A program made the translations under genes and the position numbers. Below the pieces are notes generated by a model. The model was not told where the DNA came from, did no database searches, and saw only the letters and a program-made list of their open reading frames with translations. A stretch of DNA of 64,000 bases from a virus (Duplodnaviria; Caudoviricetes), in the IMG/VR virus record IMGVR_UViG_3300036784_000120, positions 63,790 to 127,789 of that record. One strand, given 5' to 3'. Shown in pieces: positions 10,840 to 49,877 of the stretch (positions are counted from its first letter, which is position 1; each line of letters begins with the position of its first letter).

Positions 10840-11162
10840 TGTGCGGCCCCCGGTGTCCCATGCACCGCTGCCGTCCACGCCGTGATCACGGCCGTCACGA
10901 ACCGGGGATCCTGGCTCATCAGCCCGTCCAGGTCGGCAGGCACCGGATGACCGTCGTCGTCCTCCACGTTCCACGACTCCAGGGCGTAGCCGAGCGTCGC
11001 GGTCATATGGCGGAACGCCGCCAGGTCACCGGAGGCGACCGCAGCAGCAGTGTCGAGCATCACCGACATGGGCACCGGCCGGACCGTGATCTCCAGCCCT
11101 TCATACTCGGTGCCGGTGAAGTCCAGCTTGAACGGGGCGCGTTTCGGCCGGAAACCTGTCAC
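10836..11162 (-). CDS. Tail assembly chaperone-like protein
   Basis: FKLDFTGTEYEGLEITVR...ALESWNVEDDDGHPVPADLDGLMSQD resembles actinophage chaperones. Confidence 0.6.
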   Translation of the reverse strand: MTGFRPKRAPFKLDFTGTEYEGLEITVRPVPMSVMLDTAAAVASGDLAAFRHMTATLGYALESWNVEDDDGHPVPADLDGLMSQDPRFVTAVITAWTAAVHGTPGAAQ

Positions 11163-12768
11163 TGTGCCGCTCCCGGTAGTCCGCCTGCTGCGGGCGGGTT
11201 CTGCGGTGGCCGCGGCGGGCCCGCGGCGGCGGGACGCATCTGCGGTGCCGACGGCGGCCGTGGCCCCTGCTGCCCGCCGCCGGCCCTGGCGGCGGCCTGC
11301 TGCGTGATCGCCGTGCCCGCCTGCGCGAGTCCCTGCAGCTGGCCGAGCCCCGCCGCGGCCTCCGGCGGCATGCCAGGCGGCGGATTGCCAGCTAGCTGTT
11401 CGGCACGTTGCGAAGCGGTAGACACCAGCGCGTCATGCACCTGGTCCACGTCCAGCTGCAGAATCGACGCCATCCGTTCGGTGATCAGGTCAAACACCTG
11501 CAGCGGCACGTGCAGCACCGGCGCCGCCGACATCTGCCCGAACATCGTCAGCAACTGCTGCGCCTGCTCATCCTGAAGCGGACCGAACTTCGCCTGCGGA
11601 TACGATGCGCCGGTACCGAAGTTGAGCATCACCAGCGGCCGGATCACGTCGTAGGAGATGGATTCGGCGATTTCCTTCGCCACACCCTGACGCGACTTCA
11701 GGTAGAAGTCGGACTGGTCCTGCGACAGGCTGTAGGCGCCCTTCCCGCCGGTTGACGCGGACGCGAGGCCGAGGAACCCGGCCAGCACACTGCTGATCGC
11801 CCACGACGACAGGAACGACAGCGCCTGGGAGAAGAACAGGCCCGCATCCGCGGACGACGGGATCGCCTCGAACGCCTTCTGCCCGTCGATCGGGTGCACC
11901 AGCCCGACGACACCGGAGCCGCGGAGCTGGGAAATGTCGTCGGCGCGGGCGGTGGCTTCCGGCTGGTCGTTGCCGTAGACGACAAGCCGCTGCAACGCCA
12001 TGTTCTCCAGGTAGTAGTACCAGAGATACAGCAGCTTCATCTGGGTCGAATGGCACCAGTACGCCACCTCAACCTCGGACACGCCCGTCAGCGGCTCCCG
12101 GTGCTTCCCGTGGGTGTAAATGTAGGAGCGGATCTTCGGGATATCCACATACCCCGGCACCTTCTGCCGCCTGGACAGCATCAGGTTCCCGCCGAACAGC
12201 CACACCTGCTGCCGGAACCCGTTCGCCTCCCCCGACCTGTCGTTATACCGGGCCTGGCACGTGGCAGGCGGGCGGAACGCGATCTTGTCGTAAACGATCT
12301 TCCCGTCCGACTCGCGGACCTTGAACGTCTTCTCGAAAAACGCCCGCCGGTACAGCTGACCCGACGTGATCTGGCCGAGCAGCTCCGTCATCGGCGTCCG
12401 CATGCCGCCCTCAGTGTCCGGCGTCATCAGCACGCTGCGGATGAAGTCGCATTCGCCTTTGTCGCCCTTGCCGGGCTCAATCGAGAAGTCGGCTTCGCGG
12501 ATCGGGAGGGTCAGCACCAGCTCGAGGGCCTGCGCGGTGCCGTTGCGGGAGAACATGGTCTTCAGGTCACGAGACGACCATTCGCCATATTCTTAAATCG
12601 AAGACATCACCCTCGCCGTAGTAGGCGAACAGCCGCTGACCGTAGTCAAACGAGGTCTAAAGTCCCGATCTCAGGACCCATCAGGGTCCGCTTGCCGCCC
12701 GGGCCGCGGGAGCCCTTGGGGGGGAGATCGGGGAAGGCGATCACGTTAGCGTCTTTACCGGATGCCAT
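11159..12768 (-). CDS. Portal protein (DUF935/Mu gp29-like), ~531 aa, with two 7-nt coding gaps near the N-terminus
   Basis: Body ORF 11159..12556 (SVLAGFLGL...GAYSLSQDQSDFY...IRPLVMLNFG). The N-terminus from ATG 12768 joins in frame when 12654-12660 and 12590-12596 are skipped: ...PEIGT/SFDYGQRLFAYYGEGDVFD/YGEWSSRDLKTMFSRNG. Confidence 0.82.
12590..12599 (-). other. Candidate UUA bypass site, portal #2: GAT TTA A GAA
   Basis: In-frame TTA; skipping 7 nt restores the frame; reading through reaches TGA after 9 codons counting the TTA. Confidence 0.7.
12654..12663 (-). other. Candidate UUA bypass site, portal #1: ACT TTA G ACC
   Basis: Synonymous Thr take-off and landing codons; reading through gives TTA GAC CTC GTT TGA. 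Confidence 0.75.
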
Positions 12769-16677: not shown

Positions 16678-17508
16678 TCACCGGGCACCTGCCCATGCGC
16701 GCTGGTAGGCGCTGACCAGCCACCGGTTAGCCACGTCGTAGTTCGGATGCTCAGGCAGCGGCGACGCCAGCGGCGACGCCAGCAGGTCCCTGATCCGTGC
16801 CTCGAGCTGGTCGGCGAGCATCAGCGCCCGGTCCATCGGGACCAGCCCCGTGCGGATGTCGCGGACGATCTCCCGCTGCCACTCCGGCATGGGAAGCGTG
16901 ATCTGGCCGGTTTCCAGCAGCTCCACGCCCTGGAAGCCGAGCCGGACCATGTGGCCGCCGAACTTGGTGTCCCAGCCGTAGGCCGCGATCAGTTCGGGGC
17001 GGGTGACATCGCGGCCTTTCCCGTCGTGGGACAGCATCGACCGGCGCTGCGCGTGCAGGTACCCGGCGAACCGGTGCCCCGCCTGCCTTGAGACGATCAG
17101 CGGGGTGAGGTCCCGCAGGTCCGCGCCGAGCGGCGTGATCGTGACGATCTCCGCGGGCGGGACGAACAGGGGGATCAGGATCGACGGGTTCCCGGCCAGC
17201 GCGAGACGCAGGTACTTGCGCAGCGAGTAGATCGTGATGTCCAGGTCGCCGGGGCCGGACCGGTTGGCGAGCCCGCCGGGGCGTTCCCACGCGGTGTGAT
17301 GCTCGTACTGGTCGAACTCGCGGAGCCCGATCACGTACTCGGCCGGCTCAGTGCAGATGCCCATCTCGTCGCGGTCGTCGTGGCCGGTGATCGCGGTGCC
17401 GTGGACACCGGAGCCGACCTGGCAGCGCAGGATGGTGGCCGATTCGGCGAGCTCGCGGAACTCCGCGCTGCCGTGCTTGCCGGGACTGCGGTATTCCGTG
17501 TCGCTCAT
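16678..17508 (-). CDS. Pol-beta superfamily nucleotidyltransferase (PF10127 Nuc-transf/RlaP-like)
   Basis: VGSGVHGT...DDRDEMGI...DITIYSLRKYLRLALAGNPS...YGWDTKFGGHMVRL. Confidence 0.85.
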   Translation of the reverse strand: MSDTEYRSPGKHGSAEFRELAESATILRCQVGSGVHGTAITGHDDRDEMGICTEPAEYVIGLREFDQYEHHTAWERPGGLANRSGPGDLDITIYSLRKYLRLALAGNPSILIPLFVPPAEIVTITPLGADLRDLTPLIVSRQAGHRFAGYLHAQRRSMLSHDGKGRDVTRPELIAAYGWDTKFGGHMVRLGFQGVELLETGQITLPMPEWQREIVRDIRTGLVPMDRALMLADQLEARIRDLLASPLASPLPEHPNYDVANRWLVSAYQRAWAGAR

Positions 17509-17558
17509 GCACCCCAGCATACCCGTTCGGCTACATAGGGCATAGTAGACTACTGGTC

Positions 17559-19805: not shown

Positions 19806-21498
19806 CTATCGCCACGACTTGACGTTGCCCCGGCCGCGGTCCGGTTGCGCCTGGTCATCGTCGTCTGGCGAAAAGCCGTCCAGGTCCCACGGGGCCGCAT
19901 CCATGTTCTGCTGCGCCTTCTCCATGATTTCCCGCATCCTGCGATGCCCGCGTGCTTCCTCCCCGATGCCCATGTCCGCGAGGTTCTGCGCGCCTGCCCA
20001 CTTCCGTACGGCACCCGGCCCGTACTCGCCGAGGTGCGGCACGAACGCCTGCACCACGGCGTCGCCGTCGTCGGTGGACCGGCCGAGCCGCTCCCGGATG
20101 TCGTCTTTGCCTTCCACCTGGATCCGGCCGCTTGACGTGACATCCCACTGCGGTGTCGACAGGTCACCGAGCAGCATCTCGTCGTCCGGCAGGCAGATGT
20201 CCGGGCGGGCCGACGGGTCCAGGGCCTGCCGCAGCGTCCACCACGCTTCACTCCTGCGGTTGGCGAACCCGAACTCGCGGGTGGAGTCTTTCGCCTTCGA
20301 CCCGCGGGACGCGTTGAACGCCAGCACCCTGGCGTGCTGCTCGCGGAGCCGGTCGACGACACCCGCGCCGATACCGATCACGTCAACCACGGCGGTGCGG
20401 GAATCGTCAGCGGACAGGATCGCGTTCACCCGCCCCGTGGTTTTCATCGTGTCTTCCCGCACGAACCGGCGCAGCTCCGTGATCACGGGCCCGTTACGGA
20501 TCGCGAGGACAGTGCGGTCCTCACCGGTCCTGGCCACGTCCACCCCGACGGTGCGGGGCCTGCCCAGGTCCGGCTTGCCCGCAGCCTCCCACTCATGCCA
20601 GCGGGCCACCGCCGCCTCAGCCCACGCCAGCGGGATAACCGAATCCTCGTCGCCGGCGTGGAACTCGCCGAGCACCCGGTTCACGTAGATCGCTGACGTT
20701 TCACCCCACTGGCGGAGCCGCTGCGCCGCCCAGTCCCTGGTGACCCGCCCCGCCGTGATCGCGTCGTCGAGGGTGACATGGACCGGATACCAGTCCTCGT
20801 ACCCCTGCCGGCGTGACTGAATGTCGTAGAACCGGCCCTGCGGTGCCCCCGGCGTCGACAGTGCCAGCGCGAACGCTTCCCTCGTGCCGTCCCCGGCGCC
20901 GGAGAACGCGCCTTCGCACGCGTCGAACGTGCCCGCCGGGATCGCCTTGCTCTCGTCGTAGACGAACAGCAGCGAATCGGCGTGCGCGCCTTCGATCAGC
21001 GCCGCGTTAGCTGACGCGCCGGCGAACGCATGCCCGTAACTGAGCCGCAAGTTCAGGTTCTGCAGCTCCGCCCGGGTGAACGGGTGGCCGTCACGGACCC
21101 TCCCCCATTTGATCCGGCCGGCCCACTTGTGGATTTCCGGCCACAGGTACTGGGTCAGCTGATGCCATGACCCGGCGGTCGTCGCGACCTTCCAGTCCAC
21201 GCCGGCGGCGTCCCGGGTCAACGCAAACCACAGCACCGTCACCGCCGCGATGGTGCTTTTGCCCAGTCCTTAATCCATGGGGGCCGCGGACCGCTTCGCG
21301 TTTCCGCTGCGGCAGGCCCCCAATGATTTCCTCCTGGTATCCGGTCAGCCCCTCGCCGCGCCAGTCGATGCAGTCCGCGGCGAAGCCGAGCGGGTCATCG
21401 TAGTAGCGGGCGACGCCCTGCTTGATTTTCGCTGCGCGCCGCTGCAGTTCCAGCAGGTAGCGCAGCCGGTCAGCCGGCGCCTGTATCTGCGGGGTCAT
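19806..21498 (-). CDS. terL: Terminase large subunit (~561 aa) with a 7-nt coding gap in Walker A
   Basis: Two track ORFs join to VRGPHG/LGKSTIAA when 21267-21273 is skipped; Walker B FVYDES, LSTP, nuclease VGVDVARTGEDRTV, RSTDDGDA. Confidence 0.92.
21267..21276 (-). other. Candidate UUA bypass site, terminase: GGA TTA A GGA
   Basis: Identical take-off and landing codons around an in-frame TTA; skipping 7 nt restores GxxGxGKS. Confidence 0.82.
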
Positions 21499-27606: not shown

Positions 27607-28034
27607 TCGTCGCCGTCCTCTGCTCGCAGTCTCGCAAGTTCGGCGCGGGCGGCGTCACTCATCAGTCCTTGGTTGCGTTCGGTGTATTCCAGCAGTTCAC
27701 GGCGGCGGCGGCGGGAACGCTCTACAGTCAGCCACTCAGGCGTCGGCGGGGTAACGGCCTGATCCTCCGGCACGTCCATGGTGCGCTTGATGACCCGCAC
27801 ACGGTCGCCCTCAATGCTGTAGACCAGGCAGAGTACCCAGCCGTCCGCGCGCATAGCCGGGGTGAGTTCCTGCTCACCGGGCACGTGCTCCACCTGATCC
27901 GGGGTCACGCCCTCGGGAAGGGACATGTCTCCCGCCTGCCCGCGGGCGGCCTCGATCGCGGCTTCCTCAGTGCTGAACGGCAGCGCGTCCACATCATCAT
28001 GCCGGTCCTCAATGAGGACTATCCAGGTGTCCAT
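27603..28034 (-). CDS. Hypothetical protein
   Basis: MDTWIVLIEDRH... Confidence 0.65.
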   Translation of the reverse strand: MDTWIVLIEDRHDDVDALPFSTEEAAIEAARGQAGDMSLPEGVTPDQVEHVPGEQELTPAMRADGWVLCLVYSIEGDRVRVIKRTMDVPEDQAVTPPTPEWLTVERSRRRRRELLEYTERNQGLMSDAARAELARLRAEDGDE

Positions 28035-30747: not shown

Positions 30748-30769
30748 ATGCACGTGCATCGGCACGTGC
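30748..30769. promoter_or_regulatory. Degenerate palindrome ATGCACGTGCATCGGCACGTGC (copy 3)
   Basis: 12 nt upstream of the tail fibre ATG. Confidence 0.6.
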
Positions 30770-30781
30770 GAAAATCAGGTC

Positions 30782-33208
30782 ATGATCGAGACCATCCGGC
30801 TGCGCCGGGGCACCGCCGCGACCTGGACAGCAGACAACCCGGTCCTGAGCAGCGGCGAACCCGGGTATGAGACTGACACCGGGAAGGCAAAGGTCGGCGA
30901 CGGGGCCACAGCATGGAACTCGCTGGGCTACTGGTCACCCGGTGGTGCCGGCTCCGGCGGCGGCTCCGGCACGGTCACCAGCGTGTCGGTCGCCACCGCG
31001 AACGGCTTCACAGGCACCGTCGCTAACCCCACCACCATCCCGGCGGTCTCGGTTGGCACCAGCGTCACGGGGCTGCTGAAGGGCAACGGGACCGTCGTGT
31101 CCGCTGCGACGGCAGGCACCGACTACCTTGCGCCGAACGGCTCAGGCGCGGCGCTGACCGGCATCACGGCCGCGCAGGCGGGGGCGGACGCGGCCGGGGC
31201 AGCTGCCGCCGCGCAGGCGGCGGCGGTCGCCGCGTCAGCTCGGCTGCTCACCCCCACCGCCGTCAAGACATCCGGCTACACCGCCGCAGCCGGCGATTTC
31301 GTGCCGTGCGACACCACTGGCGGATCGTTCACTGTCACCCTGCCCACGGCCCCGGCGGACCTGACTGCCGTCGGGATCAAGCAGGTCACCCAGGGCGGCA
31401 CGAACACCGTCACGGTCGCCTGCGGCGGGTCCGACGTATTCAACAAGGCGGGCGGCTCCGCATCGGGCACGCTGGCACTGCTCGCCCAGGGGATGCTGCT
31501 GCAGTACAAGGCGTCGCTGGGCGTCTGGTACGTCATGTCCGACGACCTGCCGCTGCCGCAGCTGGACGGCCGGTACCCCCAGCGGTCGAACAACCTGTCC
31601 GACCTGGCCAGCCTGACCACGGCCAACACCAACCTCGGCGCCCCCGTCAACGTGATCGCCTACGGTGCCAAGGGCGACGGCACCACCGATGACACGACCG
31701 CCATCCAGAACGCTCTCAACGCAACCCGGACCGGGGGACGCTGCGTCTTCCCGCAGCCCGCCAGCTTCTACCTCATCAGCGCCGCACTCCAGGTCCCCAA
31801 TGGCGTCTCAGTCCTCGGCCCCGCCGTCTCCCGCCCCGGCAAGAGCCGCACCGCGTCCACTGCCACTCCTGCCGTCATCAAAGTCGCCAACGGCGCGAAC
31901 CTGAACGCGGTCATCACTGACAAGGTGTACCTCGCCGGCGGCACCGCGCCCGTCGCGCCCTCGGCGTCCATCCTCATCCGCGGCCTCGTCATCGACGGCA
32001 ACAGCAGCAACCAGGCCGGCGGCAACGGGCACGGCATCATCCTCGTCACCGAAGGCTCCTCGGTCGAGGAATGCGGGGTGCAGAACGTCCGCGGATCCGG
32101 CATCGTCATCGCCGACCAGAACGCCGCCGGGAACAACACCAGCAGCAGCCTCAACCAGCCCGAGAACGGCGTCTACCGCTGCAACGTCTATCAGCCCGGG
32201 GTGTCCGGCATCGTCGTGCAGAACAACTCCGGCGGCCTGACCGACGGCTACATCATGGAAAACATCGTCGACCTGAACGGTGCCGGGACCGGCGTCGGCA
32301 TCGACGTGCAAACCGGCGGCGGCTGGCGGGTCGCCTACAACCACTGCTATGCCACCCCCGGCGACTCTTTTCACCTCAAGACCCTTTCCTGCGCGTGGAT
32401 CTACGGGAACTATGCCGACAACTACGGGCAGGCCGGCACCTCGGCCACGACTTATTACGGGTTCCTCGTCACCCTCTCGCCGTTCGGCGGCACCGAGTTC
32501 ACCGACAATGTTTCGGCGCCCGCTGAGGCGGTCGGGTCCGGGGCGGCGAACTTCACCCACTTCTCGTTCGCCTGCAATGCCAGCGGGCAGAACAACATCC
32601 TGACCGAGCACGGCTCCCACGCCCGCCAGCGCAACACCGGCTCGGGCACCTCGACCGCGTGGGCGTACAGCGCGGTCGGCGGCGGCGGCACGCTGGCCGT
32701 GTTCGGGAAGACGAGCATGGGCAGCACGGTCGGGTCGACCATCATCCAGCAGCCGTCGATCACCGGGACGGTCACGTTCCCCGACTTCCGCGGCGCCCCG
32801 CAGGCCAGCCAGCCGTCCAACCCTTCCGGCACCCTTTCGGCGACGCTGGTCATGGCCGGGTTCGCCATCGCCTTCACCCCGCAGGCCACCGGGAAGGTGA
32901 AGATCACCGTCTCCGGCGGGGCCGGCGTGCAGACCGCTGTGCAGAACGTGACCGTCGGCGCCCGGTACGGCACCGGCACCGCGCCTGCCAACGGGGCCGC
33001 GGTGACGGGCACCAGGATCGGCGTGGACCAGACGGCGCGCGGGCCGGCCACCACCGTCGCATTCAACGCGAACTGGGCGATCACCGGTGAGGCGACCGGG
33101 CTGACGCCCGGCACCGCTTACTGGTTCGACCTGGCCTTCGACACCGGGAACGCCGCCGATCAGGCGCAGATCGGGAACGTCTCCCTCATACTGGAAGAGG
33201 TGCCCTAG
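30782..33208 (+). CDS. Tail fibre/tailspike: Mtd_N-like N-terminus + pectate-lyase-like beta-helix
   Basis: IRLRRGTAATWTADNPVLSSGEPGYETDTGKAKVGDGATAWNSL; VNVIAYGAKGDGTTDDTTAIQNAL. Confidence 0.88.
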   Translation: MIETIRLRRGTAATWTADNPVLSSGEPGYETDTGKAKVGDGATAWNSLGYWSPGGAGSGGGSGTVTSVSVATANGFTGTVANPTTIPAVSVGTSVTGLLKGNGTVVSAATAGTDYLAPNGSGAALTGITAAQAGADAAGAAAAAQAAAVAASARLLTPTAVKTSGYTAAAGDFVPCDTTGGSFTVTLPTAPADLTAVGIKQVTQGGTNTVTVACGGSDVFNKAGGSASGTLALLAQGMLLQYKASLGVWYVMSDDLPLPQLDGRYPQRSNNLSDLASLTTANTNLGAPVNVIAYGAKGDGTTDDTTAIQNALNATRTGGRCVFPQPASFYLISAALQVPNGVSVLGPAVSRPGKSRTASTATPAVIKVANGANLNAVITDKVYLAGGTAPVAPSASILIRGLVIDGNSSNQAGGNGHGIILVTEGSSVEECGVQNVRGSGIVIADQNAAGNNTSSSLNQPENGVYRCNVYQPGVSGIVVQNNSGGLTDGYIMENIVDLNGAGTGVGIDVQTGGGWRVAYNHCYATPGDSFHLKTLSCAWIYGNYADNYGQAGTSATTYYGFLVTLSPFGGTEFTDNVSAPAEAVGSGAANFTHFSFACNASGQNNILTEHGSHARQRNTGSGTSTAWAYSAVGGGGTLAVFGKTSMGSTVGSTIIQQPSITGTVTFPDFRGAPQASQPSNPSGTLSATLVMAGFAIAFTPQATGKVKITVSGGAGVQTAVQNVTVGARYGTGTAPANGAAVTGTRIGVDQTARGPATTVAFNANWAITGEATGLTPGTAYWFDLAFDTGNAADQAQIGNVSLILEEVP

Positions 33209-47323: not shown

Positions 47324-47379
47324 TCCGGCAATTCCTGTTGGCTTCCCGGGCCGGTGTTCCGGTATGGTCTGCGGTTAGC

Positions 47380-47451
47380 ACCTCTCCCGAAGTGCAGGCG
47401 CCGGTTACTTCTTGAAAAGGCGACCCGTCGCCGATCCGTTGTCGGGAGGGT
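47380..47451 (+). ncRNA. Candidate Y RNA 1 (Ro60-associated)
   Basis: CTCCCGA...TCGGGAG stem; shares CCCGAAGTGCAGG and CCCGTCGCCGA with RNA 2; TATGGT upstream. Confidence 0.65.
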
Positions 47452-47466
47452 CTACAACTTCATGGC

Positions 47467-47585
47467 GGGCGCTGCCCGAAGTGCAGGTGACGGTTCCTTC
47501 GTTTCTGGAACGAGTGAGCGGGCCCTGGCCTGGCCGGGGCAGCGCGCTTTGTGTCCCGTCGCCGACTCGTTATCGGGCGGCGCCC
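47467..47585 (+). ncRNA. Candidate Y RNA 2 (Ro60-associated)
   Basis: GGGCGCTGCCCGA...TCGGGCGGCGCCC 13-bp terminal stem; directly upstream of the TROVE gene. Confidence 0.7.
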
Positions 47586-47633
47586 GGCCATGAAGCTGAA
47601 TACCCTCCCTCCCGCTCGAGGAGGTTGAGGAAG

Positions 47634-49304
47634 ATGGCCAAGTTCAACCGGGATGTCCGGCCCGCTGTCACCAGCCCGGTCACCAGCGTCCCGTCCGGCA
47701 GGACCGCGCTCGGCGCAGCCGGGTACGCGCGTGACGCCAAGTCTGAGCTGCACCTGCTCGCGGTCGCTTACATGGGCGGCGGGGACACCCATCACGAGAC
47801 CGGTGCGGCCCGCGACACCCGGCTGCAGGCCCTGGTCCGGCAGGTCGCCGCCGAGGATCCCGGCTGGGCGGCCCGGTTCATTCCCTGGCTGCGGGACGGC
47901 GCGAACATGCGTACCGCGCCGGTGATCGCCGCTGCGGAAGCGGTGAAGGGGATGGCTGACGCTGAGGTGCCGGGCGGGCGGCAGATCGTCGCCGGGGCGC
48001 TGAAGCGGGCGGATGAGCCGGGTGAGCTGATCGCCTACTGGTGGTCCCGGTACGGGCGCCGGCTGCCGATCGCGCTGAAGCGGGGTGTCGCCGACGCCGT
48101 GTATGACCTTTACACCGAGTTCTCGTTGCTGAAGTGGGATTCGCGGGAGGCGGCGGTGCGGTTCGGTGACGTGATCGAGCTGGTCAACCCGCGGTACCGC
48201 AAGGCGGAGTACGGCACGTGGCGGGACGCGCTGTGGCGGCATGCGATCGAGCGGCGCCACGGCCGCGGCAACGACATCCCGGCTGTGCTGGGCATGATCC
48301 GGGCGAACGCGGCGCTGCGGGCGGCGGCGGTGGCGGACCTGCGTGTCCTGCTCGACCCGGGGGCGCTGTGGGCGGCCGGGATCACCTGGCAGGATGCCCT
48401 GTCGCTGGCCGGGTCGCGGCTGCCGAAGCGTGACCTGTGGTCGGCGCTGATCCCGGTGATGGGATATGAGGCGCTGCTGAAGAACCTGCGGGGGTTCGAC
48501 GACGCGGGCGTGCCCGACGAGCTCGCCGCGGAGGTCGTCGCGAAGCTGATCGACCCGGAGGAGGTCGCGAAGTCGCGGCAGTTCCCGTTCCGGTTCCTGT
48601 CCGCCTACCGGGCGGCGGGGCTGCGGTGGTCGTATCCGCTCGAGCAGGCACTCACCGCGTCGCTCGCAGGCGTGCCGCAGCTGCCGGGCCGGACGCTGGT
48701 CCTCGTCGACCGGTCCCCGTCGATGTGGGAGCAGAAGTTCAGTGAGCACTCGGACATGCCGTGGGCGGACGCGGCGGCGGTGTTCGGGGCGGCGCTCGCG
48801 CTGCGCGCCGCGGACGCGGACCTCGCCGAGTTCTGGGCCGCGTCCCGGCCGGTGCCGTTCCGCAAGGGCGAGTCGGTGCTGAGGCTCACCGAGCGGTTCA
48901 GTTTCCAGCCCGCCCCGGGCGGCACCGACATTCCGTCGGCGGTCCGCGCGCACCTAGCCGGGCATGACCGGGTGGTTATCGTCACCGACGAGCAGACCGC
49001 CCCCGGCTGGCTGCCGTCGAACAGGTACGGGTACGGGGGCCTGCCCCCGACCCTGATAGATGACCTGATCCCGGCCAGCGTGCCGCTGTACATGTGGAAC
49101 TTCGGCGGCTACCAGCGGGGTGCCGCGCCGTCCGGGTCGGGGAACCGGGTTACCCTCGGGGGGCTGACCGACTCGGCGTTCCGCCTCATCCCGATACTCG
49201 AGGCGGGCCGCGATGCCCGCTGGGATGACCTGTTCGGCCCGGCTCCGGCCCCCCGGCAGGAGCCGGTTTCCGGCGGAACCCGGACAGCACGGCGAGCACC
49301 GTGA
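47634..49304 (+). CDS. TROVE-domain Ro60/Rsr RNA-binding protein with vWA domain
   Basis: MAKFN...DAKSEL...NMRTA...RADEPGE...ALLKNLR...SRQFPFRFLSAY; vWA LVDRSPSM, GGTD, IVTDEQ. Confidence 0.93.
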   Translation: MAKFNRDVRPAVTSPVTSVPSGRTALGAAGYARDAKSELHLLAVAYMGGGDTHHETGAARDTRLQALVRQVAAEDPGWAARFIPWLRDGANMRTAPVIAAAEAVKGMADAEVPGGRQIVAGALKRADEPGELIAYWWSRYGRRLPIALKRGVADAVYDLYTEFSLLKWDSREAAVRFGDVIELVNPRYRKAEYGTWRDALWRHAIERRHGRGNDIPAVLGMIRANAALRAAAVADLRVLLDPGALWAAGITWQDALSLAGSRLPKRDLWSALIPVMGYEALLKNLRGFDDAGVPDELAAEVVAKLIDPEEVAKSRQFPFRFLSAYRAAGLRWSYPLEQALTASLAGVPQLPGRTLVLVDRSPSMWEQKFSEHSDMPWADAAAVFGAALALRAADADLAEFWAASRPVPFRKGESVLRLTERFSFQPAPGGTDIPSAVRAHLAGHDRVVIVTDEQTAPGWLPSNRYGYGGLPPTLIDDLIPASVPLYMWNFGGYQRGAAPSGSGNRVTLGGLTDSAFRLIPILEAGRDARWDDLFGPAPAPRQEPVSGGTRTARRAP

Positions 49305-49613: not shown

Positions 49614-49877
49614 ATGACGGCCCCGCGACGAAAGCCGACCGGACCACAGTGGGTGAAGTCCTCGTTCAGCTTCTCCAACGGCAACTGCATTGAGGTAGCG
49701 AACCTCGGCGACGGCACGATCGGCGTCCGCGACTCCAAAGACCCCGACGGCCCGGTGCTCGTGTTCCCCGCGTCGGCGCTGCGGGCGTTCACCCGCGGGC
49801 AGCAGCAAGAGTTACAGCCATCCGGCCAGCGGGGACAACGGGGATCATGCCGGGTGAACGCGAAACCAGGATCCTAG
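49614..49877 (+). CDS. DUF397 protein
   Basis: WVKSSFSFSNGNCIEVA...VRDSKDPDGPVLVF. Confidence 0.92.
   Translation: MTAPRRKPTGPQWVKSSFSFSNGNCIEVANLGDGTIGVRDSKDPDGPVLVFPASALRAFTRGQQQELQPSGQRGQRGSCRVNAKPGS

Follow-up and report, generated by a model that had tools for sequence, protein, structure and literature searches.

The portal gene of an uncultured, high-GC soil phage is broken near its 5′ end by two 7-nt inserts, each headed by TTA, and comparison with its relatives indicates that a peptidyl-tRNA stalled at UUA probably hops over both of them, yielding a portal protein of 531 aa. The locus lies on the minus strand (12768-11159) of a 64,000-nt stretch of DNA (hereafter the window, meaning the whole stretch analysed), which is of ~70% GC and corresponds to positions 63790-127789 of the 127,789-nt contig G000.

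Anatomy of the interrupted portal gene

The portal reading frame is divided by the two inserts into three coding segments, as follows.

12661..12768, minus strand: portal segment 1, consisting of ATG 12768 plus 35 codons, the last being the take-off codon ACT (Thr, 12663-12661)
12654..12660, minus strand: coding gap 1 (7 nt), consisting of TTA (12660-12658), G (12657) and the landing codon ACC (12656-12654)
12597..12653, minus strand: portal segment 2, of 19 codons, from TCG (12653) to the take-off codon GAT (Asp, 12599-12597)
12590..12596, minus strand: coding gap 2 (7 nt), consisting of TTA (12596-12594), A (12593) and the near-cognate landing codon GAA (12592-12590)
11159..12589, minus strand: portal segment 3, from TAT (12589) onward, of 476 codons, with the stop codon TGA at 11161-11159 and holding the Portal_Mu domain

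The long portal ORF on this strand spans 12592-11159, within which gene callers place the start at ATG 12556 (a 465-aa call, P0001). Each of the two gaps shifts the frame by +1. When TTA is decoded, the zero frame stays open for four codons at site 1, for a product of 40 aa, and for nine at site 2. The triplet that follows the take-off codon in the +1 frame is itself a stop (TAG at site 1 and TAA at site 2); the open +1 frame at the take-off codon that typifies +1 frameshifting of the prfB/Ty type is thus lacking at both sites. The motif TTTAR occurs merely seven times on the minus strand of the 64-kb window, and in-frame TTA is found at no more than 0.58 per 1000 codons in the long ORFs of the contig; the arrangement of the gaps therefore exceeds what is expected by chance.

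Uninterrupted homologues define the junctions

The gene was identified as a portal by its match to PF06074 (Portal_Mu), which has an E value of 1.6e-24 and a score of 87.3 bits (the cut-off being 23.9) and covers positions 7-321 of the 336 in the profile; a second portal profile, phrog_113, was also matched. At the protein level, the best identity found to the portals of cultured phages was 36% (Streptomyces phages), and a DNA search of the portal region against cultured phages returned no match; thus there is no close cultured relative.

The homologues retrieved by the protein search fall into two length classes. Proteins of 520-547 aa have strongly conserved N-termini that run uninterrupted across segment 1, segment 2 and the start of segment 3, with no residue added at either junction. 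In the alignment of 58 such full-length proteins, the residues on either side of both junctions are invariant, as are many residues of segment 2, and the N-terminus encoded by segment 1 agrees with that of full-length homologues such as P0005. (An AlphaFold2 model of P0005, built with the 58-sequence alignment, was poor, with a mean pLDDT of 59 and values below 50 in the N-terminal segment.) The closest relatives of the window, on the other hand, belong to the second class (462-468 aa) and were called from an internal Met equivalent to ATG 12556, which raised the suspicion that their genes are interrupted as well. Altogether, ~45 of the best 120 database hits are without the N-terminal segment, most of them called from this Met or one nearby.

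These alignments bear on the first-pass annotation of the same DNA, which had proposed two consecutive hops 19 codons apart. Its reading of ATG 12768, of the 36- and 19-codon segments and of the ACT-to-ACC and GAT-to-GAA pairs agrees with the sequence throughout. As checks it had named the presence of the upstream segment in portal homologues and of Asp at the second hop: full-length homologues do have the segment, continuous and highly conserved, and the Asp is invariant among them with no extra residue at the junction. The opposite outcome that it had named, homologues devoid of the upstream segment, was not what the alignments returned.

Gaps are frequent in the portal family

A total of 85 related loci were retrieved, 5 from Actinomycetota genome bins and 80 from metagenomes. 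The DNA upstream of a conserved anchor was aligned, and each locus was compared with a profile of the uninterrupted N-termini using a frameshift-aware dynamic program that permits nucleotide skips. Scoring was possible for 81 loci, counting the window, of which 49 bear one to three gaps each and 32 are continuous. The 83 gaps represent 44 distinct types of 4 to 15 nt and fall at six or more recurrent sites, at least, within ~30 codons.

All of the 44 gap types can be placed such that TTA (37 types), TGA (5) or TAG (2) directly follows the last conserved codon. Elsewhere TTA is scarce: 5 were counted in 33,526 codons of the portal body and none among the decoded N-terminal codons. At the other end of the skipped block, the last 3 nt match the take-off codon at two or more positions in 37 of the 44 types, as compared with an expectation of 16% (P value=2e-23, binomial test; this is overstated, since the 44 types are not phylogenetically independent). 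In 16 of these 37 types the landing codon is identical or synonymous to the take-off codon, and in the remaining 7 of the 44 the match is at a single position. Near-cognate landings, matched at two of three positions, are the commonest class across the family.

The gaps occur in every phase: +1 (4, 7, 10 and 13 nt), −1 (5, 8 and 11 nt) and in frame (9 and 15 nt). Three of the in-frame types, found in 11 loci, harbour stop codons; two are 15-nt gaps at a Phe site, one of them flanked by identical Phe codons in nine loci, and the third is a 9-nt gap at a Thr site with identical Thr codons on both flanks. Because they contain stops, no single frameshift rescues them. The gap cores are of 29% GC, as opposed to ~67% for the loci.

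Both gaps of the window recur in independent metagenome assemblies. The site-1 gap is also present in L041 and L043 and, with ACC as the take-off codon, in L031-33 and L054, and an exact copy of the site-2 gap is present in L053. Furthermore, on a tree of the portal body, gap patterns differ between very close relatives and the same gap is found in distant clades, which indicates frequent gain and loss of gaps, or their exchange between lineages. The site-2 gap (12590-12599) illustrates this pattern: L053, in which it is identical and embedded in near-identical flanks of ~36 nt, sits in a remote part of the tree, and closer relatives have other gap patterns. Such sharing suggests that gaps are exchanged, or arise repeatedly, at hot spots.

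Two other kinds of irregularity were observed in the family. In L012, at the two-Tyr ('YY') gap site, an in-frame TGA replaces a Gly codon that is invariant in all relatives, at the position where gaps led by TGA are found in other loci; candidate explanations are readthrough, a hop of 3 nt and a sequencing error. In addition, frame-keeping insertions led by TTA, of either 3 nt (TTA alone) or 6 nt (TTA GGC), are found after the first conserved Phe in L083 and after Arg-Asp in L015, L041, L043 and L062. These could be decoded or hopped over, and may represent intermediates in the evolution of frame-breaking gaps.

A proposed hop at a stalled UUA codon

In the mechanism that we propose, the ribosome would pause once UUA, a very rare Leu codon, has reached the A site and the P site holds ACU-Thr (site 1) or GAU-Asp (site 2). 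With no tRNA yet in the A site, the peptidyl-tRNA would unpair and the mRNA would slide forward by 7 nt, so that the tRNA could re-pair at the cognate landing triplet ACC (site 1) or the near-cognate GAA (site 2), after which decoding would restart at UCG and UAU, respectively. The product would be the portal of 531 aa, whose N-terminus is predicted to be colinear with those of the uninterrupted homologues. If UUA were decoded instead, the zero frame would end within four or nine codons, giving short peptides only. ACT and ACC can both be read by one tRNA-Thr(GGU), and GAA is mismatched to tRNA-Asp at the wobble position (GAT versus GAA, two of three positions). An imperfect landing of this kind had been claimed for the second hop in the first-pass annotation, and the family survey now places it in the most common class; the underlying idea that the tRNA re-pairs across the gap likewise finds strong comparative support and is likely to be right.

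Bypassing would cover all of the gap phases, the rule that TTA or a stop leads each gap and the landing matches, and is thus the simplest single mechanism. At one site, relatives have a stop (TGA or TAG) instead of TTA; this suggests that any slow codon in the A site suffices and that it is the pause as such that matters, rather than tRNA-Leu(UAA) in particular. Two hops in tandem might, as the first-pass annotation proposed, sharpen the response to the level of the UUA-reading tRNA. Local mRNA structure in 71-nt windows around the two portal sites and one terminase site (described below) was not beyond that of shuffled sequences (z of −1.3, −1.5 and +0.9), and when the three sites were read by eye no consistently placed Shine-Dalgarno-like element was seen. 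The stimulators proposed for phiHau3 are therefore not evident at the portal and terminase sites.

Ordinary programmed frameshifting, in which UUA is read as Leu and followed by a +1 shift (UUA G ACC and UUA A GAA), would add two residues at each site. No stop is met along this path at the two sites of the window, and the 4-, 7-, 10- and 13-nt gaps of the family are all +1 in phase. We nevertheless consider it unlikely. No homologue tolerates an insertion at the junctions, where the flanking residues do not vary; were UUA decoded, there would be no pause to drive the shift; and in the +1 frame a stop directly follows each take-off codon. Moreover, the family also contains −1-phase gaps and in-frame gaps with stops, which no one frameshift rule covers, and the excess of matches between take-off and landing codons would be left unexplained.

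Purifying selection on the interrupted segments

The ratio pN/pS was determined for the 37 N-terminal codons of the gap-bearing loci, read in the frames implied by skipping of the gaps. With a pN of 0.136 and a pS of 0.775, the ratio is 0.175, as compared with 0.30 for the uninterrupted loci; between the window and individual relatives it ranges from 0.09 to 0.19. Thus, the segments between the gaps are under purifying selection, at a constraint equal to or greater than that in the uninterrupted loci. These low values rule out the readings in which the segments are relics or the gene a pseudogene, and they also count against a simple start at ATG 12556.

According to the latter reading, the functional portal would begin at the internal ATG 12556 (465 aa) and the upstream sequence would consist of decaying remnants or separate small ORFs. 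The database proteins that lack the N-terminal segment speak for it, as does the Pfam Portal_Mu model, which starts near ATG 12556. Upstream of that codon, however, the frames, the start codon and the amino-acid sequence are kept in the 49 gap-bearing loci, and this despite heavy synonymous divergence (pN/pS of 0.175 at a pS of 0.78). The internal Met is as conserved in the uninterrupted homologues and is therefore uninformative for gap-bearing genes, and decay would not be expected to leave TTA or a stop at the start of every gap. Initiation at ATG 12556 alone is for these reasons very unlikely.

Removal of the 7-nt blocks before translation, by RNA editing or excision, or their absence from part of the DNA population, would be expected to give the same protein as the proposed hops, and nothing speaks directly in its favour. 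There are no homopolymer runs at the gaps to support transcriptional slippage, and the gaps are fixed in many independent assemblies, as judged from contig-level data. We know of no mechanism that excises blocks of 4-15 nt from bacterial mRNA, and removal of this kind is hardly to be expected.

Finally, the gaps might be errors of sequencing or assembly, or the element might be defective and its portal gene an inactivated pseudogene, considering that the phage is represented by a single metagenome contig found only in its presumed source run. Yet the gaps of the window recur identically in contigs of other projects (L041, L043 and L053), which excludes a sequencing or assembly error for practical purposes. 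A 1-nt correction would leave the frame broken at either site, as a full 7 nt must go; the contig ends overlap as they do for a complete phage genome; and the selection on the interrupted segments speaks against a pseudogene. The probability left to an artefact or a dead gene is accordingly minute. Quadruplet decoding, with TTAG or TTAA as one 4-base codon, was rejected because it would add residues at the invariant junctions and cannot explain gaps of 5-15 nt.

A third gap in the terminase gene and its genomic context

A gap of the same geometry as those in the portal gene was found in the large terminase gene (phrog_2).

21267..21276, minus strand: terminase gap, GGA-TTA-A-GGA, located inside the Walker A motif

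Here the take-off and landing codons are identical (GGA to GGA), and L029, a relative of 74% identity, is uninterrupted at this point. All three gaps, two in the portal gene and one in the terminase gene, are located within the first 75 codons of their genes. Few copies of the portal and of the terminase are needed per virion. The 5′ placement may be explained by early abortion being cheap and by a tolerance of low yield.

The contig ends in ~126 nt that also occur near its beginning, starting 20 nt in, a tRNA scan of the contig returned no tRNA genes, and the scanned ORFs of the window hit mostly phage-type families. On these grounds, the contig is probably the complete, circularly assembled genome of a large high-GC actinophage and not a prophage. 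Contig-wide screens for TTA-led frame breaks recovered mostly ordinary gene junctions and, being so coarse that the portal sites themselves were missed, provide no evidence for the absence of other gaps.

Several further features of the genome were recorded. At 49812 of the window (plus strand), a rare in-frame TTA is located near the expected C-terminal end of a small, possibly DUF397-like ORF; the 20-codon tail that follows is of lower third-position GC, and the TTA might act as an effective end signal. At contig positions 27729 and 41123, both outside the window, strongly coding ORFs end with an in-frame TTA directly before the stop codon (TTA TAG and TTA TGA). The window also encodes a TROVE (Ro60-like) domain protein (47379-49301, plus strand), a nucleotidyltransferase of the RlaP family, which Pfam calls an RNA-repair-pathway family (16681-17556, minus strand), and an 819-aa protein with an N-terminal Mtd_N (major tropism determinant) domain and a pectate-lyase-like domain (30749-33205, plus strand) that is probably a tail fibre or depolymerase.

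Implications

Programmed translational bypassing is among the rarest known departures from standard decoding, and its UUA-triggered form previously rested on three terminase genes and one experimental paper. With the portal family, a second essential gene is added, along with a large natural set of 44 gap variants at no fewer than six sites, in which TTA and stop codons are interchangeable and landings are cognate or near-cognate. This set would reveal the sequence rules that evolution tolerates and supplies ready-made test constructs. The many portals called from an internal Met, and hence stripped of the N-terminal segment, imply in turn that annotation pipelines systematically misread such phages.

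If the bypass responds to tRNA-Leu(UAA), the phage would read the developmental state of its actinomycete host via three gates in its packaging genes. A broader and more tentative reading, which we regard as conceivable although rather doubtful, is that TTA-headed micro-gaps form a genome-wide, evolutionarily dynamic layer of control in a clade of large soil actinophages, in which gaps may time and again be gained, lost, resized and exchanged at 5′ hot spots of low-copy virion and packaging genes, the portal and terminase among them. If true, packaging would be gated by the amount of tRNA-Leu(UAA) that the host provides, which would act as a bldA-like developmental signal, and tandem gaps would multiply the response. 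Alternatively, the gaps could be selfish micro-inserts that persist because bypassing renders them harmless.

Comparison with known bypass systems

The portal sites, as interpreted here, share with T4 gene 60 a sense take-off codon that precedes a slow or stop codon, a matching landing site and the production of one polypeptide from two ORFs. They differ in that the gap is 7 nt here and 50 nt there, the sequences are unrelated, neither a take-off stem-loop nor an evident nascent-peptide signal accompanies the portal sites, and the landings are imperfect. The combination that characterizes the T4 type, namely a gap of ~50 nt, a take-off stem-loop and identical codons, is accordingly not found at the portal gaps.

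Low-level hops over 'hungry' codons in E. coli were reportedly described by Weiss et al. in 1987 and by Gallant and Lindsley in 1998. There, as proposed here, the peptidyl-tRNA slides a few nucleotides, over a similar length, to a matching codon when a starved or rare codon leaves the A site empty; those hops, in contrast, took place at low efficiency in laboratory constructs, whereas the portal gaps are evolutionarily fixed in an essential gene. The mitochondrial 'byp' elements of Magnusiomyces capitatus, reportedly described by Lang et al. in 2014, likewise interrupt essential genes in large numbers as short untranslated inserts. Their take-off and landing codons match, slow or unassigned codons come after the inserts, and their occurrence among relatives is patchy and suggestive of mobility. 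Unlike the portal gaps, byps are 27-55 nt long, structured and mitochondrial, not of phage.

The likeness to the phiHau3 terminase extends furthest into detail. UUA-triggered bypassing was proposed for this gene by Smith et al. (2013, J Bacteriol 195:4924, as related in PMC10732093) and was supported by Antonov et al. in 2023 (PMC10732093), who found that, among 100 terminases, three have UUA-led gaps (7 or 10 nt), those of phiHau3 and of the StrepC.1 and S. catenulae prophages. The full-length product of a gapped terminase was detected in Streptomyces, mass spectrometry identified a junction peptide in E. coli when UUA had been replaced by UAA, and a +1-frame stop inside the gap increased bypass efficiency (PMC10732093). 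Portal genes are absent from that study, and a full-text literature search returned no report of bypassing in a portal gene.

In both systems, an essential gene of a high-GC actinophage with a function in DNA packaging is interrupted, a conserved codon is directly followed by an in-frame UUA that opens a short non-coding block (7 or 10 nt), homologues without the block keep the protein junction strictly conserved, two gaps per gene are possible, and a slow A-site codon is the proposed trigger. That a stop codon can stand in for UUA was demonstrated by experiment in the phiHau3 system, and in the portal family natural relatives carry such stops. The two systems differ in the gene interrupted, a portal here and a terminase there (the terminase of the present phage being gapped as well), and in frequency, with gaps in 3 of 100 terminases in the phiHau3 study as against 49 of 81 portal relatives, the latter with 44 versions at six sites or more. 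Landings in the portal family are mostly near-cognate, unlike those of phiHau3, and neither the stem-loop nor the Shine-Dalgarno stimulator invoked for phiHau3 is evident at the portal sites. Bypassing of the phiHau3 type has protein-level support; for the portal it is proposed from sequence comparison. The portal gaps display the hallmarks of that type, that is, a short non-triplet block, a leading UUA, a continuous junction and a pairable landing codon, and the portal is most likely an added gene for the known UUA-led bypass of phiHau3.
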